Source of the DNA: Candidatus Saccharimonadales bacterium
Lineage (GTDB): Bacteria; Patescibacteriota; Microgenomatia; Levybacterales; UBA12049
Direction: 5' to 3'
NCBI GenBank assembly: GCA_035478335.1
Contig: DATIJS010000057.1
Coordinates: 8,143-72,142, forward strand
Length of the DNA: 64,000 nt
In this document: positions 3,257 to 56,155 of the stretch, one piece after another
Layout of the letters: every line of letters starts with the position of its first letter
Position numbering within the stretch: position 1 is the first letter of the stretch
Program-made: the position numbers and the translations under genes
Notes under the pieces: model-generated
What the model was told of the DNA's origin: nothing
Databases searched by the model: none
The model's input: the letters and a program-made list of their open reading frames with translations, nothing else

Positions 3257-4450
3257 ATGTTAATTACTGCACTTGTTTTTCTTCTTCTCCTCTCAGTTCT
3301 GGTACTCATTCATGAAGCGGGGCATTTTTTTGTCGCCAAAAGGTTTGGAATAAAAGTTGAGGAGTTTGGATTTGGTTTGCCTCTGACCAAAGCATTATTT
3401 TCAAAAAAAATAGGTGAGACAATTTATTCATTTTATCCGGCTCTGATTGGAGGATTTGTAAAGCTATACGGTGAAGATGATGCAGGGGCAGGACGTGTAA
3501 AGTTAAAAGTTAAAAGTGAAAAGTTAAAAGTTGGAGATGAAGATAGGGCATTTTATAGCCGTTCACTTTGGCAAAGAGCTGCTGTAATTCTGGCCGGAGT
3601 TGTGATGAACACGATTCTGGCTATTGTTATTTTTTACGCATTTCTCGCTGTATCCAATTTCCAGACAGTTGTTCCTATTCTGGGCGAGAATGCACCGCAA
3701 TTTATAGGAGCTGAGCAGAAATTTATACCAAAAGGTGCATCAATCGGCAGAGTTGCTCCGGGTTCTCCGGCTGAAAAGGCAGGAATTAAGATTCAATCGG
3801 TGGTGACATCAATAAATGGCCAGAAAGTTACAGGCAATAATGAATTGATTGACATAATAAACAAAAATAAAGGAAAAGAGACAACAGTTGACTGGTTTGA
3901 TATTAATGCAAATAAGAAGTTTACAGCAAATATCGTTCCAAGAGTTTCTCCTCCTAAAAATGAGGGAGCAGTCGGAATAGCGTTTGATTATAATCAATAT
4001 GATTTGGCAATCCTAAATTATGAAAAGCCGGAGAATAAAATATTTGCAGGATTTTCACATACATACAATACATTTCTTTACAATGCGGATGGAATTAGAG
4101 CGTTATTCAGTCAATCAGTCAAGGAAAAAAATGTAGGTGCAATTAGTAAAAATGTCGGAGGGCCTGTCATGATTTTCAAAATTGTTGGTGACATAATAAA
4201 AATTCCTGATGCGAAAGAAATAGTACTGCAGCTCTTGAATATGGCCGGGACACTTTCTCTCTCGCTTGCATTTTTTAATGTATTACCAATCCCCGGGCTT
4301 GATGGAGGAAGATTGTTTTTCATCGAAATTGAGGCTGTAACGCGCCGCAAATTAAATCCCAAATTTGAGTCCATCGCCAATGCGGTTGGCATGGCCGTTC
4401 TGATCGGGTTAATAATGCTTATTACTTTTAAAGATATTTTTCTAAAATAA
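3257..4450 (+). CDS. rseP: site-2 protease RseP family zinc metalloprotease with PDZ domain
   Basis: N-terminal TM helix plus HEAGHF (HExxH) motif, a PDZ-like middle and the C-terminal LDGG motif (LPIPGLDGGRL). Confidence 0.85.
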   Translation: MLITALVFLLLLSVLVLIHEAGHFFVAKRFGIKVEEFGFGLPLTKALFSKKIGETIYSFYPALIGGFVKLYGEDDAGAGRVKLKVKSEKLKVGDEDRAFYSRSLWQRAAVILAGVVMNTILAIVIFYAFLAVSNFQTVVPILGENAPQFIGAEQKFIPKGASIGRVAPGSPAEKAGIKIQSVVTSINGQKVTGNNELIDIINKNKGKETTVDWFDINANKKFTANIVPRVSPPKNEGAVGIAFDYNQYDLAILNYEKPENKIFAGFSHTYNTFLYNADGIRALFSQSVKEKNVGAISKNVGGPVMIFKIVGDIIKIPDAKEIVLQLLNMAGTLSLSLAFFNVLPIPGLDGGRLFFIEIEAVTRRKLNPKFESIANAVGMAVLIGLIMLITFKDIFLK

Positions 4451-6699: not shown

Positions 6700-6746
6700 T
6701 TTAAGAGAACCACGGGTACCACAAGTATCACGGGTATTAAGGGTTT

Positions 6747-10382: not shown

Positions 10383-10395
10383 ATTATTAAAAAAT

Positions 10396-10424
10396 TTGAC
10401 AAAATAATTTTAGTTTTATATAAT
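10396..10424 (+). promoter_or_regulatory. perfect consensus sigma-70 type promoter (TTGACA-17 nt-TATAAT)
   Basis: TTGACA at 10396-10401, a 17-nt spacer, then TATAAT at 10419-10424 (an extended TATATAAT). No ORF follows; a structured GC-richer segment and a terminator do. Confidence 0.55.
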
Positions 10425-10430
10425 CAAATC

Positions 10431-10615
10431 ATAAAGCGTTATTAGTTTGGCTTCCTACCAAACGATTCCTTCGGTTAACTCAGGGGAGACGCTGATTGGG
10501 AAAATCTAGTACTAACCAATCCGGGAGGTTCCCGTTACAGAACAAACTTGTGTCGGCCTAGCTGGAGCAAGGATAAGAATAATTTATCTTTGCACACCAA
10601 GTGGTGTGTTTTTTT
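10431..10615 (+). ncRNA. candidate small RNA (~185 nt) of unknown identity; 6S-like size
   Basis: Bounded by the consensus promoter above and an intrinsic terminator (CACACCAAGTGGTGTG plus a T7 run at 10593-10615). It contains several local hairpins (GTTTGG…CCAAAC, GATTGG…CCAATC, CGGGA-GGT-TCCCG, GATAA…TTATC) and is GC-richer than its flanks. There is no start codon or ORF. Confidence 0.45.
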
Positions 10616-10767
10616 ATAGGTAAATTAGAAAAGCAAGGTGGTACCGTGTCAAAATCAAAAGTCAAAGATTAGAAATCAAAAATAATCAAGACAAAAGATT
10701 TTACGCCCTTGTAAGAATATAACTGTAAGTCAGTTGTGTTTTTGCAAGGGATTTTTTGTTTGTTTAA

Positions 10768-10835
10768 ATTGTCATCCCCGCGCAGGCGGGGATCCAGGTG
10801 TTTATCTAGATTCCCGTTTTCACGAGAATGACAAG
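10768..10835 (+). promoter_or_regulatory. structured TTGTCAT-hairpin-…-ATGACAA motif, copy B (copy A is at 348-403)
   Basis: ATTGTCAT + CCCCGC-GCAG-GCGGGG hairpin + ATCCAGG … CGAGAATGACAA. The outer 7-nt arms are reverse complements. A second copy with the same architecture lies at 348-403. Confidence 0.4.
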
Positions 10836-10858
10836 GTAAGTATTTATAATAAATTAAT

Positions 10859-13142: not shown

Positions 13143-13547
13143 TTAGAATGGGAGACTAACATTGAAGATTTTGACCCAGAAAAACACATAAATAACGAAG
13201 AATACAATTGCTCCTAGAATATAGAATATCCTGATTAGACCCGAATGTCCGTGCGGTTTTGTTACTATTGCAGACGAAGAACTTTGCGGTAATGGCTGAT
13301 TTATAGTTACAGTCTGAGGCTGCTGTTCGGGGATAGGGGATAGACTGTCTGCAGTGGCATTCGCTGTATTTTCTAGGCTTGCGCTGGGTGTCGGATTGGC
13401 CGGCTGGGCTGCGTCGGCAGACGGTTGTGGCATGATTGAAGAATCTGGTAGTGGAGAACTTCCGGGCGCAGCACTAGGCGCTCCCATCACGCGGTCATAG
13501 GTTTCTTTTAATTTAGGGTCAAGATTGGAAAGTGATTGCGGATCCAT
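13143..13547 (-). CDS. hypothetical Pro/Ser/Ala-rich protein with C-terminal TM anchor
   Basis: ORF with a low-complexity P/S/A-rich middle and a hydrophobic C-terminus (IFYILGAIVFFVIYVFFWV). Confidence 0.4.
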   Translation of the reverse strand: MDPQSLSNLDPKLKETYDRVMGAPSAAPGSSPLPDSSIMPQPSADAAQPANPTPSASLENTANATADSLSPIPEQQPQTVTINQPLPQSSSSAIVTKPHGHSGLIRIFYILGAIVFFVIYVFFWVKIFNVSLPF

Positions 13548-13623
13548 AATATTGCTCTATTAATATCTTCAGACATTTGCAATTATTTGTCAAGGGTGGA
13601 GGTTTTTGCCTTCGAAAACTATT

Positions 13624-13752
13624 AAATCCGAAGCATGAAATCTGAAATCCGAAACAGTATCAAAATACAAATAACAAAAATACAAAAAATGTTTTGATAA
13701 TTTATTAAATTTGGATTTGTTTCGAGTTTCGATATTCTAATTTCGAATTTTT
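13624..13752. repeat. AT-rich palindromic intergenic element, family 2 copy a
   Basis: Arms GAAATC(C/T)GA repeats ↔ TTTCGA repeats around a centre ATAACAAAAATACAAAAAATGTTTT. The centre is shared with 15954-16085. Confidence 0.45.
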
Positions 13753-13775
13753 ATGATCCATGTTATACTACCATC

Positions 13776-14681
13776 ATGAAGATAATAGTTACTCATATGT
13801 CTCCTGACTGGGATGCAATAGGATCTGTCTGGCTGATACGGAAATTTTTGCCCGGATGGGAAGGTGCTGAAGTTAAATTTGTACCGGCAGGGCAGCGACT
13901 CAGGGATCAGGTTTCAGGATTCAGGGTTCAGGACCAAAACCCTATTGAACTCATTGGGGAGGATGAAGTGATCCATGTTGATACCGGGCTTGGGCCGCTT
14001 GATCATCATCAAACGCAAGACAGCGATGTTTGCGGAGCTTCATTAACTTGGGAATATGTTCAGGAAATGATAAAGAATGCCGGTGACAATCTGACTGAGG
14101 AGCATATAGAAGCAATCAGCAGAATTGTTAAAATTATTGTTGATACGGATCATTTTAAGGAAGTTTACTGGAAAGATGCAGCGGAGGACTATCAAGAGTT
14201 TGGTTTGTTAGGACTTTTGGAGGGGTTGAAACTTCAGAAACCCGGGCAAGACTCAGAATATGTACGATTTGGAATAGATTGCCTAGAAGCATTGGTGCAC
14301 ACGTTTGAAAATCGCATTTGGGCTGAGAAAGAAATAAAAGAAAAGGGGATTGAATTTAAAACCAAATACGGAAAAGCAATGGGATTTGAGACACTAAATG
14401 ATACAGTGTTAAAATTGGCACAAAAGCAAGGCTATATTTTGGTTGTCAGAAAAGATCCCCGCAAGGGCTATGTTCGCATTAAAACTCTGCCTGCAACAAA
14501 AAAAGACAAAGGAATTGACCTTACTCTTACATATGAGCAATTGAGGAAGATTGACCCGGATGCAACTTGGTTTCTGCATATTTCTAAAAAAATGCTTCTC
14601 AATGGAACACCCAAAAATCCCAAAATGAGACCAACAAAATTATCTCTAACAGATATTATCAAAGTTTTAGAGAAAATTTGA
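13776..14681 (+). CDS. DHH-family phosphoesterase (NrnA-like)
   Basis: THMSPDWDAIGS (HxxPDxDAxGS) and LDHHQ (DHH) motifs. TGtTATACT at 13761-13769 lies 6 nt before the ATG. Confidence 0.6.
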   Translation: MKIIVTHMSPDWDAIGSVWLIRKFLPGWEGAEVKFVPAGQRLRDQVSGFRVQDQNPIELIGEDEVIHVDTGLGPLDHHQTQDSDVCGASLTWEYVQEMIKNAGDNLTEEHIEAISRIVKIIVDTDHFKEVYWKDAAEDYQEFGLLGLLEGLKLQKPGQDSEYVRFGIDCLEALVHTFENRIWAEKEIKEKGIEFKTKYGKAMGFETLNDTVLKLAQKQGYILVVRKDPRKGYVRIKTLPATKKDKGIDLTLTYEQLRKIDPDATWFLHISKKMLLNGTPKNPKMRPTKLSLTDIIKVLEKI

Positions 14682-14810
14682 AATAACCCAATAACCCAAT
14701 AAGCAAATACTACAAATCAAAATCCAATGCAGAATGCTCAATGAAAATATTTTTTATTTGAAATTTAGTTATTGATTTGTTTATTTGTTTATTGGTAGTA
14801 TTGGGTTATT
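14682..14810. repeat. AT-rich palindromic intergenic element, family 1 copy a
   Basis: Arms are built from short tandem repeats (AATAACCC x2 … TTTGTTTATTTGTTTATT). The sequence is homologous to the element at 16473-16620. Confidence 0.55.
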
Positions 14811-15146
14811 ATGAGTGACGCGAGTTGTCTTTTTTGTAAATTTGCAACTGGGGAAATTAAGAAGGAATTCCTTTATCAGGACGAGGATGTTATGGTTTTT
14901 GCTGACATTCATCCGATCAAGCCAGTGCATCTATTAATAGTTCCCAAGACTCATGTTCCTGAATTTTCCTCTGTTGAGCCTGATTTGATGCAAAAACTTC
15001 TTGAGGTTGTTCGGAAAATGGCCAATAGAGAAGGCTTGGACAAGGGGAGAGGTTACAGGATTGGTATGAACGCCGGGGGAGCAGAAGCGATAAAGCATCT
15101 ACACATTCACCTCATGGGCCCGATAAAAAATACGGATGGAATGTAA
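14811..15146 (+). CDS. HIT-family (histidine triad) protein
   Basis: HLHIHLM histidine triad with a HIT fold length of 111 aa. Confidence 0.85.
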   Translation: MSDASCLFCKFATGEIKKEFLYQDEDVMVFADIHPIKPVHLLIVPKTHVPEFSSVEPDLMQKLLEVVRKMANREGLDKGRGYRIGMNAGGAEAIKHLHIHLMGPIKNTDGM

Positions 15147-15226
15147 GCAGTTTAATATTTGGAATTATCGTATGAAATATTTTGTGTTCAAGAATGTGGT
15201 TAGATAAAGAAAGATAGTAGTAAGAC

Positions 15227-15613
15227 TTAAGGCCTTAGAAGTTTTCTTCCCTCCTCAAGAGAATGATATTTTGGAGGACTTACTGTAGGATCTTGGCCAC
15301 CAGCATTAGGAGAAGTAGTTGTATAGATTGCTGCTTTAGGTGGTAATCCACGCTCGCGGTAAATGCTAAATGTGGTTAGAGTTACGATGCCATCTGCAAC
15401 ACTTTTTAAAATCAATAAATTTCGGTTCCTGTTATTTATATTTATCCGAGTTACAGGAGGACCCTTAGATTTGTGAGGTGAATGAGCAGCAAAATATATG
15501 AGTTGACCTACAGCATTAGGGTCTAGGTCAGCAAAAGGATCTTCTCTTTTTATTACTAAGTTACGGTTTCCGTCTATTCCGGTATCTACCTCTGTATCCT
15601 TTTCGTTACTCAT
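15227..15613 (-). CDS. hypothetical protein
   Basis: Isolated 128-aa ORF between flanking genes. Composition is coding-like but no motif was recognised. Confidence 0.3.
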   Translation of the reverse strand: MSNEKDTEVDTGIDGNRNLVIKREDPFADLDPNAVGQLIYFAAHSPHKSKGPPVTRININNRNRNLLILKSVADGIVTLTTFSIYRERGLPPKAAIYTTTSPNAGGQDPTVSPPKYHSLEEGRKLLRP

Positions 15614-15764
15614 GAGGGTGGTATAGTATCACATCTTTGCTGTTTACACAAGCCACGTTTTGAGGTAAAATGTAATCAACGCTTAACAATTCACAGCTCA
15701 CAATTGACCACAAGGTTAATTGTGAATAGTCAAATGCTAATTGTTTAAAAGGAGGTGTTGTTTT

Positions 15765-15953
15765 ATGGTACATGTTAAAAAACTTCCAGGTCAGTCAGAT
15801 GACCAGGTAATTAGAAATTTTTCCAAAAAAGTAATGGATGCCGGTATTATTCAGGAGGCCAAAAGGCGCAAATTTTATCTTAAGCCATCGCTTGCCAAAA
15901 AATTGAAGAAAAAAATGAAGCAGGAAGAAGCTGCAAGAGTAAAGTTATTTTAA
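15765..15953 (+). CDS. rpsU: 30S ribosomal protein S21
   Basis: MVHVKKLPGQS…IRNFSKKV…RRKFYLKPS…KKLKKK matches S21. The AAGGAGG RBS at 15749-15755 sits 9 nt upstream of the ATG. The tracked ORF start at 15741 is a TTG upstream of the RBS. Confidence 0.85.
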   Translation: MVHVKKLPGQSDDQVIRNFSKKVMDAGIIQEAKRRKFYLKPSLAKKLKKKMKQEEAARVKLF

Positions 15954-16085
15954 TTCCTAATATCTAATTTCTAAATCCTAAATAATACCAAATTCATAAT
16001 AACAAAAAGCAAAAACATTTTGGTATTTGAAATTTATATTTAGAATTTATTTAGAGTTTAGTATTTAGTATTTTTAAAAGATATA
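15954..16085. repeat. AT-rich palindromic intergenic element, family 2 copy b
   Basis: Arms CTAA(T/A) repeats ↔ ATTTAG repeats around a centre ATAACAAAAAGCAAAAACATTTT. Confidence 0.45.
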
Positions 16086-16472
16086 ATGGATAATATCAAT
16101 GTTCTTATTTATGTTGAAAGCAGGTATAAAGTTTCTCGCAAAAAAATAAAATCTGCAATTAAAAGTGTTTGCGAGGAAAATAATCTTACCAGTCCTGTTG
16201 AGGTAAGTGTTGCCATTGTCGGGGATCGTAAGATGAAAAAGCTCAACAAAGAGTATCGAGATAAAGAAGGAACAACAAATATTCTTTCATTTCCGCTTGC
16301 TGAAGGAGAACAGTCCAAATTGCCATCAGATGTAACAAGACTTGGGGATATCATTATTTCTTATCCAATGGTAATTAAAGAAGCTGCGCGGGATGAAGTG
16401 TTGGTAGATGAGCGCGTTGATGAATTGGTAAGACATGGAATGCTGCACCTGCTTGGGTTGCACCATGAATAA
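16086..16472 (+). CDS. ybeY: endoribonuclease YbeY (rRNA maturation factor)
   Basis: NILSFP, GDIIIS and the HGMLHLLGLHHE zinc-binding motif (H..H…H). Confidence 0.85.
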   Translation: MDNINVLIYVESRYKVSRKKIKSAIKSVCEENNLTSPVEVSVAIVGDRKMKKLNKEYRDKEGTTNILSFPLAEGEQSKLPSDVTRLGDIIISYPMVIKEAARDEVLVDERVDELVRHGMLHLLGLHHE

Positions 16473-16620
16473 AAATACTACCAATAACCCAATATGCAAA
16501 TACTACCAATCAATAACCCAATACAAAATATTCAAATATAGAATTCTACATTTAGATTTTTAGCGTTGATTTGACTATTGGATTATTTGTTTATTTGTAG
16601 TATTCTTCGACTGAAAGAAG
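16473..16620. repeat. AT-rich palindromic intergenic element, family 1 copy b
   Basis: Shares ~30-nt blocks with 14682-14810 (AATAACCCAATA.GCAAATACTAC.AATCAA; TTGATTTG…TTATTTGT.TATTTGTAGTATT) and has an inverted-repeat architecture. Confidence 0.55.
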
Positions 16621-16624
16621 AAGT

Positions 16625-18214
16625 ATGGTTTTTTACAGAAAGTATCGCCCACAAAAAATTGAAGATTTAGATAGTCAAGCTGTTCGTCAAACATTGACTT
16701 CCGTACTCTCCCAGAATCCACCTCATGCCTTCCTCTTTACCGGTCCAAAAGGTCTTGGTAAGACATCAGCAGCCAGGATAATTGCTAAAGTTGTCAATTG
16801 CACAGGACGACAATTAACAGTTAACAATTTACAGTCAACAAAAGAAAAGTCAAATGTTAAAGGTCAATTGTCAAATTTTGATTCCATCGAACCATGTAAT
16901 AAATGCGAGCAATGCATCTCCATTACAAATGGAACAAATATGGATATTCTGGAAATTGATGCAGCAAGCAACAGGGGAATTGATGAGATCCGTGATTTGA
17001 AAGAAAAAATAAGACTTGCCCCGATGAGTGCTAGCAAAAAAGTTTACATAATTGATGAGGTGCATATGCTGACAACAGAGGCATTTAATGCTTTGCTTAA
17101 AACTCTGGAGGAGCCGCCAAGTCATGCCATGTTCATACTTTGCACTACTGAACCGCAAAAAGTTCCCGATACTATTTTATCCAGATGTCTGCATATCGCA
17201 TTCAAGCCGGCAACTGAGGAGGAATTGATTCGTTCGTTTAAAAGGATTGTTAAGGAGGAGAAGATTGACATAGCTGATGATGCATTAAAATATGTTGCAA
17301 ATTTATCAGATAGAGGTTTTAGAGATGGAGCCAAAATATTGGAAGAAGTATCCAGCCTATCGGGGGGCAAAAAAATAACAATTCAATTGATGGAAGAAAA
17401 ATATCATGCGTCAAGTTCTGCAGTTTATGTGACAAAGATGCTTGATGCTTTGGGCAAAAAAGATATAAAAGCAGCACTTAAAATTGTTGAAAGCATGGTT
17501 GAGCAGGGTTTTGATATCAAATATTTTATTACTCAGCTAATTGATGTACTGCATGAAATTTTATTGATAAAGACAGATGTAATAGCAAATGAAGAAAAAA
17601 ACATCAATGACTTTAGCATCGATCAATTAATTGTATTATTTGAGTTGCTCTCCGGAGCCCAACTGGATGCAAAGGCTGCTGTTTTGCCGCAATTGCCGCT
17701 TGAATTGGCAATTATAGATTATGGATTGCAAAACTACACCGAGTCAAGCGGGGCTACGCCTGAACAAAACCAACAACTCGGAGATGGTAATCAGCGAATT
17801 TCTGCGTATGGATCAGCGTCAATCAGCGACATGAGGAAACAAGATGGGAATATTAAAAAAATTAAAGCAATGTATGGCCCGGCAAAGCAGGATTCTGTAA
17901 TCGAGAAGACTCCAACACAGCCAAGCGGTGAGCTGTTGCACACTTCGGCAACAGGTACGCTTTCCAGTGAATGGCTGGATACATTTTGGAAGAGTATCAT
18001 CTCAGAGATGAAGAATTATAATCATACAGTTGCCGGAGTGTTAAGAGGTGCAAAAATAGGCAGTTTTGATAAAAAAACCCTTGTTATTGAGACCAGCTTT
18101 AAATTTCATAAAGAGAGGCTATCTGATATGAAAACAATAACAGAATTATCAAGAATCGCAAAAATGCTTACTGGAAAAGATGTGACAGTTGAGGTACAAT
18201 TACGTAGGGACTAG
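16625..18214 (+). CDS. dnaX: DNA polymerase III subunit gamma/tau
   Basis: YRPQKIEDL…FTGPKGLGKTS Walker A motif, a CxxC zinc module (CNKCEQC), DEVHML Walker B and a SRC motif. Confidence 0.9.
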   Translation: MVFYRKYRPQKIEDLDSQAVRQTLTSVLSQNPPHAFLFTGPKGLGKTSAARIIAKVVNCTGRQLTVNNLQSTKEKSNVKGQLSNFDSIEPCNKCEQCISITNGTNMDILEIDAASNRGIDEIRDLKEKIRLAPMSASKKVYIIDEVHMLTTEAFNALLKTLEEPPSHAMFILCTTEPQKVPDTILSRCLHIAFKPATEEELIRSFKRIVKEEKIDIADDALKYVANLSDRGFRDGAKILEEVSSLSGGKKITIQLMEEKYHASSSAVYVTKMLDALGKKDIKAALKIVESMVEQGFDIKYFITQLIDVLHEILLIKTDVIANEEKNINDFSIDQLIVLFELLSGAQLDAKAAVLPQLPLELAIIDYGLQNYTESSGATPEQNQQLGDGNQRISAYGSASISDMRKQDGNIKKIKAMYGPAKQDSVIEKTPTQPSGELLHTSATGTLSSEWLDTFWKSIISEMKNYNHTVAGVLRGAKIGSFDKKTLVIETSFKFHKERLSDMKTITELSRIAKMLTGKDVTVEVQLRRD

Positions 18215-18290
18215 GTGTTAGGGTTTAGGTTTTAGTAATTTTATTTATTACTGATCCCTAAGACCTGAAACCTAAAACCTGATTAGGGAG
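18215..18290. repeat. palindromic intergenic element (TTAGGGTTTAGGTTTTAG … CCTAAGACCTGAAACCTAAAACCT)
   Basis: Imperfect inverted arms of short tandem repeats after the dnaX stop. Confidence 0.4.
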
Positions 18291-18299
18291 GTGATTTTT

Positions 18300-18587
18300 A
18301 TGAATAATCCATTTGGTCAATTAGGAGAACTTAAAAAAATGAGGGATCAGGCAATGCAGATCCAAAAGCAGCTCAAAATGGAAGAGGTTGAGATAAATAA
18401 GCACGGAGTGTATGTTCGAATTTCAGGTGACCAGGAAATCAGAGAGATAATCAGTAACGGTAAATCAGACAATGATATAAGGGGTGCAATAAACGAGGCC
18501 GTTAAAAAGTCGCAAGAAGTAGCTGCCAAAAAACTTCAAAGCATGGGAGGAATGGGCGGACTCGGAGGATTGCTGGGTGGTAAATAA
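18300..18587 (+). CDS. ybaB: YbaB/EbfC nucleoid-associated protein
   Basis: Conserved position after dnaX, typical ~95-aa length, and a Gly/Met-rich C-terminus. GGGAGG RBS at 18284-18289. Confidence 0.8.
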   Translation: MNNPFGQLGELKKMRDQAMQIQKQLKMEEVEINKHGVYVRISGDQEIREIISNGKSDNDIRGAINEAVKKSQEVAAKKLQSMGGMGGLGGLLGGK

Positions 18588-18665
18588 GGGTAAAGGGGAA
18601 AGCGGGAAGGGTGAAGTTTAAAAACTTCTTTCCCCTTAACGCTTAACGCTTTTCCCTAATAAACT
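18588..18665. repeat. GC-richer imperfect hairpin of the same repeat family that flanks the four-helix-bundle gene (gene-less copy)
   Basis: GGGTAAAGGGGAAAGCGGGAAGGGTGAAGTTT | AAACTTCTTTCCCCTTAACGCTTAACGCTTTTCCC. Its units GGGGAAAGCG and GCGTTAAG are shared with 38138-38163 and 38521-38546. Confidence 0.5.
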
Positions 18666-19625
18666 ATGGTAAATAAATCTGAAGATTTTATTCTTTTAAC
18701 AGGCCGTTCAAACGTGCAGTTGGCGAAAGATGTTGCAAAACTTCTTGGGCAGAAACTGCATGAACCTATTAGTCTTTTTTCTGATGGCGAGATAAGAGTG
18801 AGAGTTCCGGTTAGCTTGCGGAATATGCATGTCTTCATCATTCAGCCAACCGCGCCGCGTGTAAATGACAGCATCATGGAACTTCTACTTATGATTGATG
18901 CTGCCAAAAGAGCTTCTGCTTCTGAAATCTCAGCAATTATTCCATATTTTGGCTATTCACGCCAGGATAGGAAAGAAATGCCGCGTGTTCCGATCAGTTC
19001 TTCGGCAATTGCCAATATGATCACAAATGCCGGCGCAACGCAAATTTTGACAATTGATATCCATTCGCAGCAGCAGCAGGGATTTGTTTCAATCCCATGG
19101 GACAATCTGTACGGCAGTTATGCTTTGCTCCCGATGATTAAGTCACTAAAATTAAAAGATCTGGTAGTTGCTTCCCCTGACAAAGGCGGAATGATTCAAG
19201 CAACAGGTTATGCAAAGCTTTTGGGGGCAGATGGAGTAGCACTTGTTTATAAAGAGCGGGATGTTGCTGTCAACGATAAATCAGGGACTTCGGCAATGAT
19301 CGGAAAAGTAAAGGATAAGAATGTACTTTTGGTTGATGACATAATCAGCACGGGAGGCACTATCGTAAACGCTGCTGTCTATTTAAAAGAACGTGGTGCG
19401 AAAAGCGTCAGACTGGCAATTGTTCATGGTCTTTTTGTTGGAGATGCAATCGAGAAAATAAAAAATCCGGTTATTGATGAGATTTTTGTGTCAGATACGA
19501 TTGAGCAGAGAAGTGAAGTTAAAAATATCAAAAAAGTTAAAATTGCTTCAGTTGCACCTCTTTTGGCTGAAGCAATAAAAAGAATTCAAACCGGTCAGTC
19601 GATAAGCCGTGATTTGATTTTGTAA
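18666..19625 (+). CDS. prs: ribose-phosphate pyrophosphokinase (paralog 1)
   Basis: PRPP synthetase signature …GYSRQDRK…, a PRPP-binding loop VLLVDDIISTGGT and a DGEI flexible loop. Confidence 0.9.
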   Translation: MVNKSEDFILLTGRSNVQLAKDVAKLLGQKLHEPISLFSDGEIRVRVPVSLRNMHVFIIQPTAPRVNDSIMELLLMIDAAKRASASEISAIIPYFGYSRQDRKEMPRVPISSSAIANMITNAGATQILTIDIHSQQQQGFVSIPWDNLYGSYALLPMIKSLKLKDLVVASPDKGGMIQATGYAKLLGADGVALVYKERDVAVNDKSGTSAMIGKVKDKNVLLVDDIISTGGTIVNAAVYLKERGAKSVRLAIVHGLFVGDAIEKIKNPVIDEIFVSDTIEQRSEVKNIKKVKIASVAPLLAEAIKRIQTGQSISRDLIL

Positions 19626-19676: not shown

Positions 19677-20600
19677 ATGAAGATATTTAGCGGGAGTTCA
19701 AATAAGCTGCTTGCCGAAAAATTAGCCCAAAATTTAGGATTGGAATTGTCAGAAATTGAGATACATGTTTTTCCGGATGGAGAGAGGCGCGTTAAATTAA
19801 ATGACATCGTTGTGGATGAAGAGACTGTGGTGGTTCAGTCGACAGCGACTCCGGTTGATCAAAACTACATCGAATTATTCTTTATTATTGATGCGCTTAA
19901 GCGTTCAGGAGCAAAATCTGTTACAGCTGTAATGCCTTATCTAGGCTATCAAAGGCAGGATCATATCTTCCGCGATGGAGAAGCAGTTTCTCTGCAAGTG
20001 ATGATTGGAATTTTGGAATCGATGGGAGTAAATAAGGTGATAGTTCTTGATCTGCATACAATAAAGATTCCTGAATTTTTTCATATACCGATTGATCATT
20101 TGTCAGCACTTCCCCAATTCGCAAAAGTTATAAAGGAAAATGGATGGGACTCTGATTCAATTCTTGTATCACCTGATATGGGGGGTTTAAGAAGAATAAA
20201 GGAGATGTCAGAATTTTTGTCCGGAATGTCTTGGATTGCAACAGTTAAAGATAGGAATTTGGATACCGGTGAAATAACTATAGAGAAAATTGAAAGCTCA
20301 GTTTCCAACTGGAGTATGGAAAATTTAAAAGGGAAAAGAGCCCTTATTGTTGACGACATGGCATCAAGCGGAGGAACATTGATTGAGTCTGCGAAACTTC
20401 TTAAAAAAAGTGGAATTTCAGAAGTGTACGCTTTTGTAACGCATCCGATTTTTTCCAAAGATGCACCTAAATTACTTCAGGACTCAGAGATCACCAAAGT
20501 TTTTGTGACTGATTCGGTTTACGTTTCGGAGGAAAAGAAGTTTCCAAAGTTGGAAGTTTTATCGGTTGCGGAGATGATAGCGAAAGAAATCAAAGATTAA
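19677..20600 (+). CDS. ribose-phosphate pyrophosphokinase family protein (paralog 2, divergent)
   Basis: …GYQRQDH…, ALIVDDMASSGGT and FPDGE. TTGCCC-17 nt-TACAAT (19640-19668) lies 8 nt before the ATG. Confidence 0.8.
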   Translation: MKIFSGSSNKLLAEKLAQNLGLELSEIEIHVFPDGERRVKLNDIVVDEETVVVQSTATPVDQNYIELFFIIDALKRSGAKSVTAVMPYLGYQRQDHIFRDGEAVSLQVMIGILESMGVNKVIVLDLHTIKIPEFFHIPIDHLSALPQFAKVIKENGWDSDSILVSPDMGGLRRIKEMSEFLSGMSWIATVKDRNLDTGEITIEKIESSVSNWSMENLKGKRALIVDDMASSGGTLIESAKLLKKSGISEVYAFVTHPIFSKDAPKLLQDSEITKVFVTDSVYVSEEKKFPKLEVLSVAEMIAKEIKD

Positions 20601-20683
20601 AAATAAAACATCAAATATACATATCAAAAGTCAAAGACACGTTTTTATTTGTTTTTACTTTTTAATATTTAATTTTTAATTTA

Positions 20684-21289
20684 ATGATGAAAATTCCAAA
20701 AGCAATTACCAATTTGGTTGAAAGTTTTGAGCGTCTTCCTGGTGTTGGTCCGAAGACTGCTCAGCGGCTTGCGTTTTATCTGCTGCACGTTCCCCAAGGC
20801 GAATTAGATCGATTCGCTATGTCTGTTGCAGAGCTTAAAAAGAATACAATAATATGTTCAATCTGCTTCTCTGTTGATGAGATTGATCCATGCAGTATTT
20901 GTTCAGATGCAAAGCGAAATCAGCAAATTATTTGCGTTGTTGAGCAGCCGCTGGATATTTTGGCATTTGAGAAAAGTGGAAAATATACAGGCGTGTATCA
21001 TGTCTTGCATGGGAAAATTGACCCATTAAATAATATCGGACCGGATGAGATTCATATTGCAGAATTGCTGCAAAGGTGCAGGAATTCGGATATTAAAGAG
21101 GTTATATTGGCGACTAATCCGACGATGGAAGGGGAGGCAACTGCTATGTACATTGCAAAGCAACTGAAAACTGAGAACCAAGAACTAAGAATTACTAGAA
21201 TTGGAAGAGGTTTGCCAACTGGTGCGGATATTGAATATGCTGACAGTACCACACTTGTTCAGGCAATGACAGGCAGACAGGAATATTGA
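20684..21289 (+). CDS. recR: recombination protein RecR
   Basis: LPGVGPKTAQRLAFYLL helix-hairpin-helix, a C4 zinc finger (CSICFSV…CSICSD) and a Toprim domain. Confidence 0.9.
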   Translation: MMKIPKAITNLVESFERLPGVGPKTAQRLAFYLLHVPQGELDRFAMSVAELKKNTIICSICFSVDEIDPCSICSDAKRNQQIICVVEQPLDILAFEKSGKYTGVYHVLHGKIDPLNNIGPDEIHIAELLQRCRNSDIKEVILATNPTMEGEATAMYIAKQLKTENQELRITRIGRGLPTGADIEYADSTTLVQAMTGRQEY

Positions 21290-37234: not shown

Positions 37235-38137
37235 TCACAAGTCCTGATTTACTATTTTTTCTCTTTCCGCTTCTATTTCCTCAAGTGCCACTTTAACTTG
37301 CTCGTCTTTTGGAGGTGCGCCATCAACATCTTTGAGCCCCGGTGGCATTCCGTGCCATTTGTAATTTCCTTCCATGTAGCTAACACCTTTCCCCGGAACA
37401 GTATGGGCAATGATTATTACAGGTTTGTCTTTTACATTTTGTGCCTCCTGCACAGCTTCAACAAATGCCTTGATGTCGTTTCCATCAACATCAATCACAT
37501 GCCAGTTGAATGCTTCATATTTTGCGCGAAACGGCTCAAGCGGCATGATGTCTGAAATATTCCCGTCAATCTGTATGTTGTTGAAATCAATAACCTGAAT
37601 CAGATTGTTGAGTTTTAATTTGGCTGCAAACATAACAGCCTCCCAGATATTTCCCTCTTGGTGTTCGCCATCGGATGTCAGACAATAGACTTTATAATCT
37701 TTCTTATCAAGTCTTCCGGCTAGCGCAATGCCTGCAGCTTGTGAAATTCCCTCACCAAGAGGCCCTGATGTATTCTCAACTCCGGGAAGCGCAGTTCTAT
37801 GAGGATGACCCTGAAGACGTGTGCCGATTTTCCTTAATGTTTTTAATTCCTCAATTGGGAAATATCCGGCTTGGCTCATACTGGCGTAACGGATAGGGCA
37901 GATGTGGCCGTTTGAAAGGATAAGGCGGTCACGGTCTTCCCAGTCAGGATTCTTGGGGTCGTGACGCAGTATGTGGAAATACATTGCTGTAAAGATATCT
38001 GCCATGCCGAGTGGCCCTCCTGTGTGACCGGCACCAGAGTTCTTGCATGCAGCATCAAGCTCCTCGATTAGCAGTTTTCTGACCTCATTGGCTTTAAGCT
38101 TGAGGTCTTTTAGTTTTTCGTTTGTAAGTTGGTTCAT
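37235..38137 (-). CDS. transketolase, N-terminal (TPP-binding) subunit
   Basis: GHTGGPLGMADI, the TPP-binding SDGEHQEGNIWEA and a GDG-like motif. Confidence 0.9.
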   Translation of the reverse strand: MNQLTNEKLKDLKLKANEVRKLLIEELDAACKNSGAGHTGGPLGMADIFTAMYFHILRHDPKNPDWEDRDRLILSNGHICPIRYASMSQAGYFPIEELKTLRKIGTRLQGHPHRTALPGVENTSGPLGEGISQAAGIALAGRLDKKDYKVYCLTSDGEHQEGNIWEAVMFAAKLKLNNLIQVIDFNNIQIDGNISDIMPLEPFRAKYEAFNWHVIDVDGNDIKAFVEAVQEAQNVKDKPVIIIAHTVPGKGVSYMEGNYKWHGMPPGLKDVDGAPPKDEQVKVALEEIEAEREKIVNQDL

Positions 38138-38163
38138 AAGCGTAAAGCGTTAAGGGTAAAGCG
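38138..38163. repeat. left inverted-repeat arm flanking the four-helix-bundle gene (units GTAAAGCGTTAAG x2)
   Basis: AGCGTAAAGCGTTAAGGGTAAAGCGTTAAGCC. Its units are the reverse complement of units in the right arm (38521-38546) and of the hairpin at 18588-18665. Confidence 0.5.
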
Positions 38164-38520
38164 TTAAGCCATCTTGTTAATCATAACAAATAACATTTTC
38201 ATTATCTCATTTAATAGCGATTCTGCTTCCGTAAAGTCAATATGTTTAAATTTTGAAATAGAATTACAAACCAAAATCTGAGTTTCTAGTTCTGCTGCTG
38301 AACCTAAGGCAATTGAAAGAAATTGAATGTATTCTTTTCTGTGTCTCCTTAGATATCCTTCAGCAATATTGCTTGGGATTGAGACAGCTGCTCGTTCAAT
38401 TTGAGATCGTAACCCATATAATTCGTCCTTTGGGAATTTTTCTGTTAGTAAATAAATTAATTTGACAAGCTCCATTGATTTTTGCCAAACAATTAATTCT
38501 TTGTAAGATTTAACTAACAT
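38164..38520 (-). CDS. four-helix-bundle protein of the 23S rRNA intervening-sequence protein family
   Basis: ELIVWQKSMELV…FPKDELYGLRSQIERAAVSIPSNIAEGY…RKEYIQFLSIALGSAAELETQ matches this family along its whole length (~118 aa). Confidence 0.85.
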   Translation of the reverse strand: MLVKSYKELIVWQKSMELVKLIYLLTEKFPKDELYGLRSQIERAAVSIPSNIAEGYLRRHRKEYIQFLSIALGSAAELETQILVCNSISKFKHIDFTEAESLLNEIMKMLFVMINKMA

Positions 38521-38546
38521 ACGCCTTTCCCCTTGACGCTTTCCCC
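38521..38546. repeat. right inverted-repeat arm flanking the four-helix-bundle gene
   Basis: ACGCCTTTCCCCTTGACGCTTTCCCCTTAACCCTTAAG. Its reverse complement contains GGGGAAAGCGTCAAGG, matching left-arm units. Confidence 0.5.
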
Positions 38547-39824
38547 TTAACCCTTAAGTACTATAAATAAATCCGAAATATTTGACTCCAGCTTGCCTGT
38601 GAGTATCCCATCTCCGATTTTTTCCCAGAACCCGTAACTATTATCATCCGATAAAAATTCATTGACGTCAATACCTTGATCATTTATTTTTTTCAAAGTA
38701 TCAGAGTCTGCAAGTGCTCCTGCCAACTCATAAAAATCCCACCCATCCGATCCGACACTTGCAAGTACAGTTTGATCTTTTATAAACGGCAAAGCGCAAA
38801 GAACCAATGCTTGATTGCGGCCTCCTTTGCCGCTCCCTGTTATCTTGATTGTTGACTCACCACCAGCCAAAAGTATTTGCCCTTGAGGTGTTTGATCAAT
38901 TAATTTCTCTCCAAGAGTTCGTGCATCACCTTGCAATGCATCAGTCAGGACGAAGGCGTTTTTACCGAGTTCGCGTGATTTTTTCTCCATTGCGTTGAGA
39001 GCTGTATGATTACTCAGCATCAGTATATTATGAACCCGCTCAAAATACTTGTCTTCTTTCGGGGTTTCTGTAAAGTCTTCAAGAGTCAGGGGGAGGGTTT
39101 GTTTCATATTATATTTTTCATAAATTCCCCATGCATATTCTATAGATGTCGGGTCTTTAACAAGAGGCGCAGATGCTATAACTGATAAATCATTCCCGGG
39201 AACATCCGAGAAGATCAAATTTACAACAGTAGATGGAAATAGAATTTTTGCCAGTCCGCCGCCCTTAACTCTTGATAAATGTTTGCGGATTGAATTAATC
39301 TCAGAGATTGTGGCGCCGGATTTGAGAAGAGTTTTATTGACTTCGATCATTTTATTGATGTCAAATGTATTTGGTTTTTCAAACAGTACTGATCCGCCGC
39401 CGCAAGTTGTGATAATAACCAGATCTTTTTCATTTAAATTTGATAAATTGTTAATTACAGTTTCTGTGAAGTCGAAATTTGTCTGAGAGGGAAGAGGATG
39501 TGTTCCAAGAGTTGGTTTGATTTTGGTAAATTTTTGCTCTACAACATCAATAACATACCCATCAGTAATTAAGTTTCCCATTTTCTCCTCCAAAATTTTA
39601 CACATCAGAGCTGATCCTTTTCCGAATCCTACTATAAATATACGGTCAAAATTGGCCAGATTAAAGGTTTTATCCTGGATTTTTAGAACTTTTTCGTTTA
39701 AGGAAAAATGATTTTTGAACACTTCTTCAGGTTGAATAGAGGCAAATGCAGATTCGATCAGCTGAAGCACAATCTTGCGGTTTTCGTTTGTCGCAAGCGA
39801 ATCGTAATTTTTTATGTAGGGCAT
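38547..39824 (-). CDS. glycerate kinase (MOFRL / glycerate 2-kinase family)
   Basis: N-terminal DUF4147-like Rossmann domain (…IVGFGKGS…), a C-terminal MOFRL region (…LLAGGESTIKITGSGKGGRNQ…) and ~425-aa length. Confidence 0.8.
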   Translation of the reverse strand: MPYIKNYDSLATNENRKIVLQLIESAFASIQPEEVFKNHFSLNEKVLKIQDKTFNLANFDRIFIVGFGKGSALMCKILEEKMGNLITDGYVIDVVEQKFTKIKPTLGTHPLPSQTNFDFTETVINNLSNLNEKDLVIITTCGGGSVLFEKPNTFDINKMIEVNKTLLKSGATISEINSIRKHLSRVKGGGLAKILFPSTVVNLIFSDVPGNDLSVIASAPLVKDPTSIEYAWGIYEKYNMKQTLPLTLEDFTETPKEDKYFERVHNILMLSNHTALNAMEKKSRELGKNAFVLTDALQGDARTLGEKLIDQTPQGQILLAGGESTIKITGSGKGGRNQALVLCALPFIKDQTVLASVGSDGWDFYELAGALADSDTLKKINDQGIDVNEFLSDDNSYGFWEKIGDGILTGKLESNISDLFIVLKG

Positions 39825-41636: not shown

Positions 41637-43034
41637 GTGACTGCAGTCAATAATAAAACAAAAATCGTCGGTACTTTGGTGCCGATTTCTGCGTTAAGAA
41701 GCAATCAGCAATCTGAAAAAGATTGGGGGACTTTTGAGACAGGTTTGTATTTTCTCGACTGGCTACATAAGACAAATCAATCCGCTTGGCAATTATTGCC
41801 GCTTCACGAGACACAACTTGAGAAAGACTCAGCTACTATTCACGTTCCCTCTCCATATAAAGGGTATGGGATAGGACTGGACCCGGAGTATTTATCTCAA
41901 AAATCAAAAATCAAAAATCAAAAATCAAAAGAAATTGATATATTTATTCGTCAGAACAAGGATTGGATTGAGGATTATGCGTTTTTTTGTGCTCTGCGCG
42001 ATCATTTTGGGACTGATAATTGGGTTCTCTGGGAGTCCGGTTTGAGAAAAAGGGATCAAGCGGCGCTTACAAAATGGAGAATAAAACTGGAAAAAGAAAT
42101 AAATAATCATATTTTTACACAGTGGCAGCTACACGAATCTTACAAAGAATTAAGAGCAAAAGCACACAAGTTCGGTATTGCACTGATGGGGGATTTACCA
42201 TTTTATTTATCAGTAAATAGTCCTCTTGTCTGGGCCCATCAGGAACTATTTCAGATCCCGAAAAGCGGTAAGTTGAGGTTTGTTTCAGGCTGTCCGGATA
42301 CTCCGGCTGCTCATTTTGGGCGTCAAGTCTGGGGGCATCCTCTTTATAATTGGGATTCTGAGCATAGATCAGATCTGATTTCATTCTGGAAGTTGAGACT
42401 TGGTTATCTCTCTAAGCTTTATGATTCTGTCAGGTTTGATCATGCAAAAGCTTTATTTGAGTACGGCAAAATTGATTTGAAGAATAAGTATCAGGATAAA
42501 TATGTAAAAGGTCCGGGGCAGAGTGTTTTTGAAGAATTGATGATTTTTGGCAAAAAATCAGGACTTTCTATGTATGCAGAAGACAGCGGTGAGAATCTGA
42601 AGATGCTTAGAATATATCTTAAAAAATTCAAAACACCAGGGATTAAGATTTTCCGTTTTGCGCTTAATGAGAAGAAAAAGAAATTAAATAAAGAGTATGC
42701 ATTGCTATCTAATTATCCTCAAAATACAGTTGCATACACCACAACTCACGACACCGAACCTCTTCTTGGGTACCTAAATCGTTTAACTGTCTCAGAGAAA
42801 AAACTGCTTTCATTAACAACCGGTGTTAAGTATTCGAGGGATGACAAAGAGTTTGCGCAAGCAATAATAAAAGCTGTTATAGCCTCTCCTGCACATATTG
42901 TAATCGTTCAGCTTCAGGATTGGATTTTGACAACTGATAGGATCAATATTCCCGGAACGGAAAAAGAAGTAGGGGATCTTAATTGGAGATATAAATTGAA
43001 AATTCCGATTGAAGAACTGCCAGATAGTATTTGA
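41637..43034 (+). CDS. malQ: 4-alpha-glucanotransferase (amylomaltase, GH77)
   Basis: GH77 signature blocks …SPYKGYGIG…, …FGIALMGDLPFYLS…, …VWGHPLYNWD…. It contains an in-frame (TCAAAAA)x4-5 repeat at 41897-41931. Confidence 0.85.
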   Translation: MTAVNNKTKIVGTLVPISALRSNQQSEKDWGTFETGLYFLDWLHKTNQSAWQLLPLHETQLEKDSATIHVPSPYKGYGIGLDPEYLSQKSKIKNQKSKEIDIFIRQNKDWIEDYAFFCALRDHFGTDNWVLWESGLRKRDQAALTKWRIKLEKEINNHIFTQWQLHESYKELRAKAHKFGIALMGDLPFYLSVNSPLVWAHQELFQIPKSGKLRFVSGCPDTPAAHFGRQVWGHPLYNWDSEHRSDLISFWKLRLGYLSKLYDSVRFDHAKALFEYGKIDLKNKYQDKYVKGPGQSVFEELMIFGKKSGLSMYAEDSGENLKMLRIYLKKFKTPGIKIFRFALNEKKKKLNKEYALLSNYPQNTVAYTTTHDTEPLLGYLNRLTVSEKKLLSLTTGVKYSRDDKEFAQAIIKAVIASPAHIVIVQLQDWILTTDRINIPGTEKEVGDLNWRYKLKIPIEELPDSI

Positions 43035-52875: not shown

Positions 52876-52957
52876 ATATTCATACAAGTCTTTTACATTT
52901 GAGCTGTTAAGATAATTAAGTATAAGTTTATTTTAATAAAGATCGGGGGTGATTTAT

Positions 52958-53104
52958 ATGAGTATTAGTTTTGCAAATCTTAGTCCAATTGTTTCATTAC
53001 TTTTTGGTATTCTTATCCTGGTATTTCCAAAATTTCTCAATTATCTAATTGCTGTCTATCTTATTATCATAGGGCTGTTGGGGCTTGGAATAATCAGATT
53101 TTGA
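52958..53104 (+). CDS. 48-aa small membrane protein (DUF3096-like; not in ORF track)
   Basis: GGGGGTGA RBS-like purine run before the ATG. MSISFANLSPIVSLLFGILILVFPKFLNYLIAVYLIIIGLLGLGIIRF matches the DUF3096 pattern (…ILVFPK.LNY.IA.YLIIIGLLGL…). Confidence 0.5.
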   Translation: MSISFANLSPIVSLLFGILILVFPKFLNYLIAVYLIIIGLLGLGIIRF

Positions 53105-53228
53105 GCAGGCGGTAAAGGTAAATATAAATTTTAGTTTACTAATTTTATACTAATATTTATCTTTTTACTTTTACCCCCTTGACAATTATATTAATTTGAT
53201 ATAAATTTAGATTAAATCTACAATATTT

Positions 53229-55892: not shown

Positions 55893-56155
55893 TAAAGTCG
55901 CTGAATAAAAATAACTTACGCAAACTAACTTATCTTTTTGACGGAATTCTTCGTTGTTAATAAGCTCCCTCCAAAGGCGGGCAGGCAAGTATCCTCTGTT
56001 ACTATCGCAGATTAACGTCTTCAATTCCATTCAAAAATCCTAAGTGATTTTGCACAATTTATTTTTACTCATCGACTTGTTTTGCCTCTAGTAATCAAGC
56101 TAATTTCCTACTATAATCAATACATTCCTTCTGCCTCTGTCCCTCTGGATTCATT

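Follow-up and report, generated by a model that had tools for sequence, protein, structure and literature searches.

Introduction

Heptanucleotide repeats have been known from bacterial spacers since about 1990, and the S23p open reading frames (ORFs) of ribosomal RNA (rRNA) intervening sequences (IVSs) since 1993. Here we analyse a 64,000-nt stretch of a Candidatus Saccharimonadales assembly (GCA_035478335.1, contig DATIJS010000057.1, positions 8,143–72,142; hereafter the window), in which a first-pass annotation had singled out five AT-rich palindromic spacers, between positions 13624 and 18290, whose arms are short tandem repeats. These spacer elements are hairpins with periodic arms; they form families that recur at non-orthologous sites and turn over at a given spacer, and the same arm families are strongly associated with PF05635 (S23p) genes, also in cyanobacteria and Riemerella.

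The IVS of Coxiella 23S rRNA is a 428-nt 'selfish element' whose terminal stem of 28 bp is cleaved by RNase III and which contains an S23p ORF and two or three tandem GACAGAT heptamers, their number depending on the strain (PMC4990558). PF05635 ORFs are known from rRNA insertions in the Candidate Phyla Radiation (CPR; PMC11270868). An excess of heptamer simple sequence repeats (SSRs), with occasional inverted pairs, has been described in many bacteria and attributed to polymerase slippage (PMC4679880, PMC4692102). Among other palindromic repeats, those of Rickettsia insert in frame and Correia elements are cut by RNase III (PMC10969869). Our literature search returned no account of heptamer-armed elements in CPR, and no link between PF05635 and heptamer arms outside the Coxiella IVS.

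Results

Hairpins with periodic arms in the spacers around dnaX

The five spacers share one architecture, as the first-pass annotation had claimed, every one of them containing an imperfect inverted repeat with periodic arms. E1 (13624–13752) is a gene-less hairpin between divergent genes, with arms at 13624–13655 (AAATCCGAA-type units) and 13709–13752 (TTTCGAG-type) and its inverted repeat at 13645–13665/13692–13712 (21 nt, 71%). E2 (14682–14810), of the AATAACCC/AATACTAC family, is gene-less and occupies the entire spacer between the DHH-like and HIT genes, with two overlapping inverted repeats (14688–14708/14775–14795, 21 nt, 86%; 14698–14720/14788–14810, 23 nt, 83%). The rpsU–ybeY spacer is occupied by the gene-less hairpin E3 (15954–16085; inverted repeat 15961–15987/16059–16085, 27 nt, 74%), whose TCTAAAT/ATTTAGA family is related to that of E1. 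The ybeY–dnaX spacer holds gene-less E4 (16473–16605; 16471–16502/16576–16607, 32 nt, 78%), of the AATACTACC...GGTAGTATT family, and E5 (18212–18281; 18220–18235/18265–18280, 16 nt, 88%) is a short hairpin of TAGGTTT/CCTAAAA units that begins on the dnaX stop codon. Across these five the loops measure 30–70 nt and are ORF-free.

Three further hairpins of the same kind were found. E6 (18585–18657; 18585–18602/18628–18645, 18 nt, 89%), absent from the initial list, lies in the ybaB–prs spacer and is built of AAGGGGA/CTTAACG units. Another stands upstream of rpsU (15674–15745; inverted repeat 15678–15709/15714–15745) and consists of CACAATT-type units of the same family as the third, an in-frame insert in dnaX (16809–16832/16849–16872). 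E7 (20601–20683), in the prs–recR spacer, is a weak member with an A-rich left part and a T-rich, period-7 right part; it contains a Tandem Repeats Finder (TRF) array at 20652–20682 and has matches in loci L005, L069 and L002, but its inverted-repeat score is only 24.

Compared with 200 dinucleotide shuffles, the hairpin spacers from E1 to E6 fold better, with z-scores of −2.46 for E1, −8.63 for E2, −2.54 for E3, −3.65 for the E4 spacer (16473–16620) and −2.99 for that of E5 (18215–18290), with −4.27 at 18588–18665 and −3.97 for the rpsU hairpin. TRF reports both arms as arrays of period 7–8, and the lag-7/8 self-match of 13 of 14 arms was equalled by only 0–19 of 2,000 shuffles (0 and 10 for the lag-7 periodicity of the two E1 arms). 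The exception is the left arm of 16473–16620, in which unit length varies between 8 and 9 nt; indeed, the units of E2 and E4 measure 8–9 nt, not 7. E1 and E5 are the weakest palindromes, scoring 24 and 22 in a stricter gapped alignment.

Formal alignment bore out both homologies that had been proposed within the set, E2 with E4 (z 27.6; BLAST 88% over 49 nt, E 1.6e-7) and E1 with E3 (z 10). A TAGTAT hexamer had also been noted ahead of two start codons. One copy (14796–14801) precedes the ATG at 14811 by 9 nt, the other (16598–16603) the ATG at 16625 by 21 nt. Both belong to the arm's terminal unit, GGTAGTATT (complementary to AATACTACC), and do not represent a conserved box in their own right. 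No Shine–Dalgarno sequence precedes the HIT gene, and the hairpin arm reaches its ATG with TAGTAT 9 nt upstream (14796–14813), a spacing that would fit a leaderless transcript.

Element families are dispersed and turn over

By its DnaX relatives the window belongs to Candidatus Levybacteria (CPR/Microgenomates); beyond the source assembly, the closest DnaX is 63% identical. Lineage statistics were drawn from 1.34 Mb, comprising the window and 80 Levybacteria dnaX loci (labelled L001 onward). The similarity of the elements is significant on formal alignment and they are not unique to the window; members of a family turn up at non-orthologous positions across genomes between which DnaX identity is about 50–63%. 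L001, for example, has a relative of E4 between ybaB and prs on the opposite strand, matching at 83% over 133 nt (E 1.6e-24); others are found in L007, full-length and in the same spacer, and in L061, between the DHH and HIT genes. E2 has relatives in L001, L007, L061 and L034. A five-copy alignment of the E2/E4 family from four genomes, with DnaX 56–63% identical, shows arms that are almost invariant and a loop that varies. Full-length relatives of E1 occur in six loci (L005, L015, L034, L017, L004 and L045), two of the copies upstream of dnaX. The 12-mer AATACTACCAAT occurs 16 times in 9 other loci. Arm changes between subfamilies are compensated: between E1 and E3, G–C is replaced by U–A at three unit-equivalent pairs, in 3–4 sequences, all units of both arms having changed together.

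To group copies across loci we clustered 177 hairpins by BLAST, which was preferred because nhmmer recovers only 3 copies of the AT-rich largest family. That family has 38 copies in 25 loci, up to five per 21-kb locus, and 110 of the 117 similar between-locus pairs lie at differing distances from dnaX. Occupancy of the ybeY–dnaX spacer likewise varies among relatives. It is empty (5–20 nt) in L011, L016 and L039; it holds hairpins of wholly different units in L001–L009, L012, L017 and others; and in L051 and L053 it holds an arm–PF05635 gene–arm cassette of the E4 family, where the window has gene-less E4.

Elements identical to those of the window are present in a public contig (CAYQPB010000001.1, GCA_964419385.1) and in two short Logan contigs. 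Over the 12.3 kb compared, 9 of the 11 differences between window and public contig fall within 115 nt (20638–20752), in the right part of the prs–recR spacer element (a 1-nt indel in the T-rich array) and the first recR codons (synonymous); this looks like a small recombination or polymorphism patch. The two Logan contigs (L082 and L083), which are independent short-read assemblies, both begin in the right arm of E2 (window position 14782 onwards), which suggests that heptamer-armed repeats break assemblies.

Abundance and placement across the lineage

Heptamer-armed hairpins are a trait of the whole Levybacteria lineage. Period-7 arrays number 376 in the sample against 41 in a dinucleotide shuffle, an excess of about 9-fold, with 108 against 12 for period 14 and 20 against 1 for period 21. 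The units run head to tail and are enriched between genes, as in short tandemly repeated repetitive (STRR) sequences: 214 of the 504 arrays are intergenic, in about 11% of the DNA. Of the intergenic arrays, 47% are accompanied within 180 nt by an inverted partner that exceeds the null's 99th percentile, compared with 8% of those inside ORFs. Hairpins scoring at least 30 were found in 133 of 468 co-directional, 11 of 65 convergent and 26 of 143 divergent spacers. Where the flanking genes are co-directional the hairpin covers a median of 75% of the spacer; the median distance from stop codon to hairpin is 9 nt, and from hairpin to start codon 12 nt.

PF05635 genes carry the same arms

A full-length cassette lies on the minus strand at 38137–38557 of the window and comprises an arm (38137–38170), a PF05635 gene (38164–38520, 118 aa) and a second arm (38521–38557). 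Its ORF matches Pfam 23S_rRNA_IVP (PF05635; E 1.1e-38, 132.1 bits against a cut-off of 33.8), TIGR02436 'four helix bundle protein' (122.6 against a cut-off of 24) and the pentameric Xanthomonas S23p (PDB 2GSC, E 1.6e-24). The inverted arms pair over 25 nt (84%) and over 24 nt (88%), have a period of 7 and are identical to E6 at 22/24 and 24/27 positions.

The association is strong in the sample. Flanking inverted repeats scoring at least 30 surround 8 of 11 PF05635 ORFs and 7 of 457 other ORFs of 90–160 aa; at a score of at least 24 the figures are 10 of 11 and 17 of 457. Cassettes outside the window occur in L017, L019, L023, L032, L051, L053 and L057, and cassette arm families are those of E2/E4, E3 and E6; an arm of E3, for instance, aligns at 93% over 29 nt with the right-hand arm of the L057 cassette. 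Cassette arms reach as far as the start and stop codons of the gene and leave no loop remnants. Moreover, the three PF05635 proteins with AATACTACC arms are 51–61% identical to one another and at most 41% to the rest. Protein subfamily tracks arm family, and hence arms and PF05635 gene are inherited as a unit. The convergent spacer at 6700–6746 of the window contains CACGGGTA-type units, a vocabulary that also forms the arms of the L017 cassette (18692–19155).

A tblastn search of PLSDB with the window PF05635 protein returned matches in 34 plasmids, mostly from Nostoc, Calothrix, Trichormus and Anabaena, together with Riemerella. All 14 of the plasmid genes examined (L084–L097) have adjacent period-7 arrays, and 10 of them have inverted arms with z of at least 5. 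In Nostoc edaphicum, for example, the arrangement (TAGGGAG)n–gene–(TCCCTAC)n is found between nrdB and nrdA. Other plasmid PF05635 genes bracketed by heptamer arrays sit inside operons, between cas6 and cas4 or between cas10 (cmr2) and cmr3. Two 50-kb Nostoc stretches contain 11–15 period-7 arrays, the strongest of which flank the PF05635 gene, and gene-less inverted pairs occur there too.

Arrays within coding sequence

The in-frame dnaX hairpin (16809–16872, plus strand) occupies the loop that leads from the Walker A motif to the zinc module, at about codons 62–83, and is related to the hairpin upstream of rpsU (alignment of 15674–15745 with 16800–16885, z 7.4). In 79 relatives this loop is 15–54 residues long. 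Where the loop is long, its DNA is period-7 and in many cases forms a strong fold (as low as −42 kcal/mol), and the unit vocabularies of the dnaX inserts are found again in spacers of their own and other genomes.

Simple direct arrays lie in frame, on the plus strand, in three further genes: TCAGGAT-type units in the DHH-like gene (13907–13933; TRF period 7/14), (AAAGTTA)x4.9 in an M50 peptidase gene (3499–3532) and a perfect (TCAAAAA)x4.9 in malQ (Glyco_hydro_77; 41897–41930), the last two called by TRF. The malQ array had been pointed out beforehand together with related repeats at 10650–10700; both are present, the latter as an A-rich period-7 TRF array (AAAATCA) at 10651–10683.

Other features of the window

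Genes from 13.1 to 20.6 kb encode, in order, an unknown protein (minus strand), the DHH-like protein (13776–14681), HIT, a second unknown protein (minus strand), S21, YbeY, DnaX, YbaB and two Prs. The prs genes are tandem ribose-phosphate pyrophosphokinase paralogues (18666–19625 and 19677–20600). The YbaB product has no record in the databases searched. No tRNA or tmRNA was found in the window, and Rfam gave no family at gathering thresholds in the window, nor any at E up to 1 for 13500–18800.

The array at 10651–10683 lies within 476 gene-free nucleotides (10383–10858) that also contain a perfect TTGACA-17-TATAAT promoter (10396–10424) and terminator-like hairpins (10592–10609 and 10706–10750). 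This stretch, for which Rfam has no family at threshold, is probably an unannotated small RNA. At its end (10748–10857) is a second dispersed repeat, unrelated to the heptamer elements, a G+C-richer palindrome TGTCATYC...GAATGACA with further copies in L031 (15766–15821), L061 (9167–9253 and 12847–12917) and L024 (20418–20487). It matches the Rfam small RNAs FtrB (41.5 bits, cut-off 66) and WsnRNA46 weakly, and both families are probably built on this repeat. Two long spacers (52876–53228 and 55893–56155) have strong inverted repeats (scores 52 and 46) without the period-7 arm pattern.

Discussion

Relation to described elements

The elements most resemble the rRNA IVSs of Coxiella burnetii and Leptospira, which are regarded as selfish and horizontally spread (PMC4990558). 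They share with them long-stem terminal inverted repeats, heptamers in tandem within the stem region, a loop that may or may not contain a PF05635 ORF, a gene-bearing form of about 430–460 nt and short ORF-less forms. The complementary termini form a long stem, and its 20–39 bp are compatible with excision by RNase III; no rnc gene lies within the window. The PF05635 ORF is confined to the cassettes and is lacking from the five listed elements. Unlike IVSs, the window elements sit between or inside protein genes and not in 23S or 16S helices, the window containing no rRNA, and there are many families per lineage.

With cyanobacterial STRRs and with heptamer SSRs of further bacteria (GGGAATC in Xanthomonas, TAACTGA in Beggiatoaceae; PMC4692102, PMC4679880) the elements have in common that units are 7 nt long, that arrays are enriched between genes and at times form inverted pairs, and that length varies among relatives, and in the sampled plasmids of Nostoc and related genera heptamers flank PF05635 genes as they do in the window. 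The Levybacteria units differ in being more degenerate (7–9 nt, imperfect), and in their spacers the paired hairpin is usual. MITEs (miniature transposable elements with inverted repeats) and similar repeats such as Correia, ERIC and BOX are likewise short, gene-less, dispersed in spacers and folded as RNA, with inverted ends and few gene-bearing relatives (PMC10969869). Terminal inverted repeats are present here, for example AATACTAC...GTAGTATT, but the arms consist of tandem units whose order varies, no target-site duplication is seen at the well-delimited copies, and gene-bearing relatives encode only PF05635 and no transposase. Rickettsia palindromic elements also insert in frame at tolerated loops of housekeeping genes in a reduced genome (PMC10969869); the organisms are unrelated, heptamer periodicity has not been reported there, and the likeness drawn here is one of description. 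TIGR-Tas arrays and CRISPR were considered and dropped, given the 7-nt period and the lack of an array and an associated gene. Repetitive extragenic palindromic (REP) sequences and REPINs are 20–40-bp palindromes with a GTAG/CGTC tag in genomes that carry a RAYT gene. The arms described here are 25–50 nt long, periodic and without that tag.

A proposed IVS-like class with gene-less members

We lean, with slightly better than even confidence, to the view that heptamer-armed inverted repeats form an IVS-like class, to which the spacer elements belong as gene-less, MITE-like members. Such a class would be characterized by two arms of degenerate tandem 7–9-nt units, the architecture of bacterial rRNA IVSs, and would populate protein-gene spacers and tolerant protein loops in place of rRNA helices. 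Its members would spread or be copied, both inside a genome and from one genome to another, by a route in which the PF05635 protein may take part, while their units would drift in number and sequence through replication slippage and arm-to-arm template switching. A transcript stem of at least 20 bp would be cut by RNase III as in IVSs, rendering the insertion harmless to flanking genes, and any terminator or promoter effect would be secondary. Unit slippage is plausible because of the period-7 excess, the arrays in coding sequence and the strain-variable heptamer numbers of the Coxiella IVS.

Several points weigh against this view. Mobility, slippage and RNase III cutting are what we infer from sequence rather than observe, and in-frame dnaX hairpins would suffer from efficient RNase III cutting. 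No target-site duplication is visible at five plus three well-delimited copies, neither the E1 nor the E5 family has a counterpart linked to PF05635 among the sampled loci, and we know of no enzymatic or mobility function for PF05635. The relation might run the opposite way, PF05635 genes inserting into pre-existing hairpins. ORFs of the sampled loci were called crudely, as longest ORFs, which makes the orientation classes and the coding/intergenic split approximate. Finally, the databases searched hold no DnaX of 64–99% identity, so that gains and losses of elements are undatable.

The first-pass annotation had suggested terminator/promoter modules, iteron-like binding sites or REP/MITE-like repeats, and only the last of these agrees with the recurrence of families at non-orthologous sites in many Levybacteria genomes. 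As functional modules, the hairpins would end the upstream transcript in either direction and the right arm would supply a −10 box, TAGTAT. We consider this unlikely, even though elements fill co-directional spacers from stop to start (the median gaps of 9 and 12 nt), the 5′ arm is A-rich in 86 versus 40 co-directional cases, TAGTAT precedes two start codons by 9 and 21 nt and the HIT gene is without a Shine–Dalgarno sequence. A scan for G+C-rich stems followed by a T-run flagged none of the elements, and its counts were not above those of shuffles. Intrinsic terminators have a G+C-rich 5–20-bp stem, a short loop and a T-run at the 3′ end of a gene, a description that these hairpins, with loops of 8–70 nt, do not fit. 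The spacer is empty in several relatives, ybeY and dnaX being 5–20 nt apart, and TAGTAT, besides complementing an arm unit, occurs in inverted copies elsewhere. Sense-strand G·U (G·T) mismatches show no excess over A·C (180 versus 156), and the remaining mismatches (629) are about twice as many as these two classes together, the ratio that substitutions free of selection would give; the arms thus resemble inverted copies in the course of divergence and not RNA stems under wobble-tolerant selection. That the elements are no ordinary terminators follows from their presence in divergent and convergent spacers as well (26 of 143 and 11 of 65), E1 being one of the divergent cases, and from the in-frame copies in dnaX. 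They may contribute to transcript ends. That the units are arrays of iteron- or operator-like sites for a regulator or nucleoid protein we regard as very improbable: the repeated short units and the conservation of arm sequences across genomes speak for it, but each family adjoins different genes in different genomes, the unit sequences are many and unrelated, and copies lie in frame in coding sequence.

Two further explanations concern origin. The elements could be purely mutational by-products, made in place by heptamer slippage and quasi-palindrome template switching, with neither copying between sites nor a link to a gene. This too appears unlikely, since copies of 100–130 nt from different sites share 83–93% identity in genomes that have diverged to saturation, the PF05635 association is far above background and protein subfamily tracks arm family. 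It would account for the simple direct arrays in Lys-rich protein loops and for the sharing of one variant by all units of an element, and it is to slippage that the heptamer SSR excess of many bacteria has been attributed (PMC4679880, PMC4692102). If instead hairpins already present in the host were insertion targets of a mobile PF05635 gene, gene-less elements would be primary and cassettes secondary. The cassette data accord with this as well as with an IVS-like class, and some insertion sequences do prefer palindromes, as IS1397 does in bacterial interspersed mosaic elements (BIMEs). We nevertheless hold it to be improbable, as it leaves the dispersal of gene-less hairpin families at non-orthologous sites unexplained and as the cassette arms abut start and stop codons without loop remnants.

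Implications

Heptamer spacer repeats and S23p ORFs, separate and long-standing puzzles, appear here to belong together, as components of a single class of elements that spans three distant phyla. More tentatively, and with less than even confidence, we propose that PF05635 four-helix-bundle genes and inverted heptamer arms make up a single widespread and undescribed class of self-propagating elements, with representatives in CPR, cyanobacteria and Bacteroidota and with IVSs as its form in rRNA. The heptamer arms would be what the pentameric protein recognizes, and gene-less hairpins would be its miniature derivatives. If correct, such a class would explain the heptamers of cyanobacterial STRRs and give S23p a function, and with it a testable role for the large 'four helix bundle' gene family. 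Annotators would be warned against taking such hairpins for ordinary terminators, and some assembly breaks would be explained. For the reduced genomes of CPR, the elements would represent a major source of both spacer DNA and in-frame insertions in protein loops.

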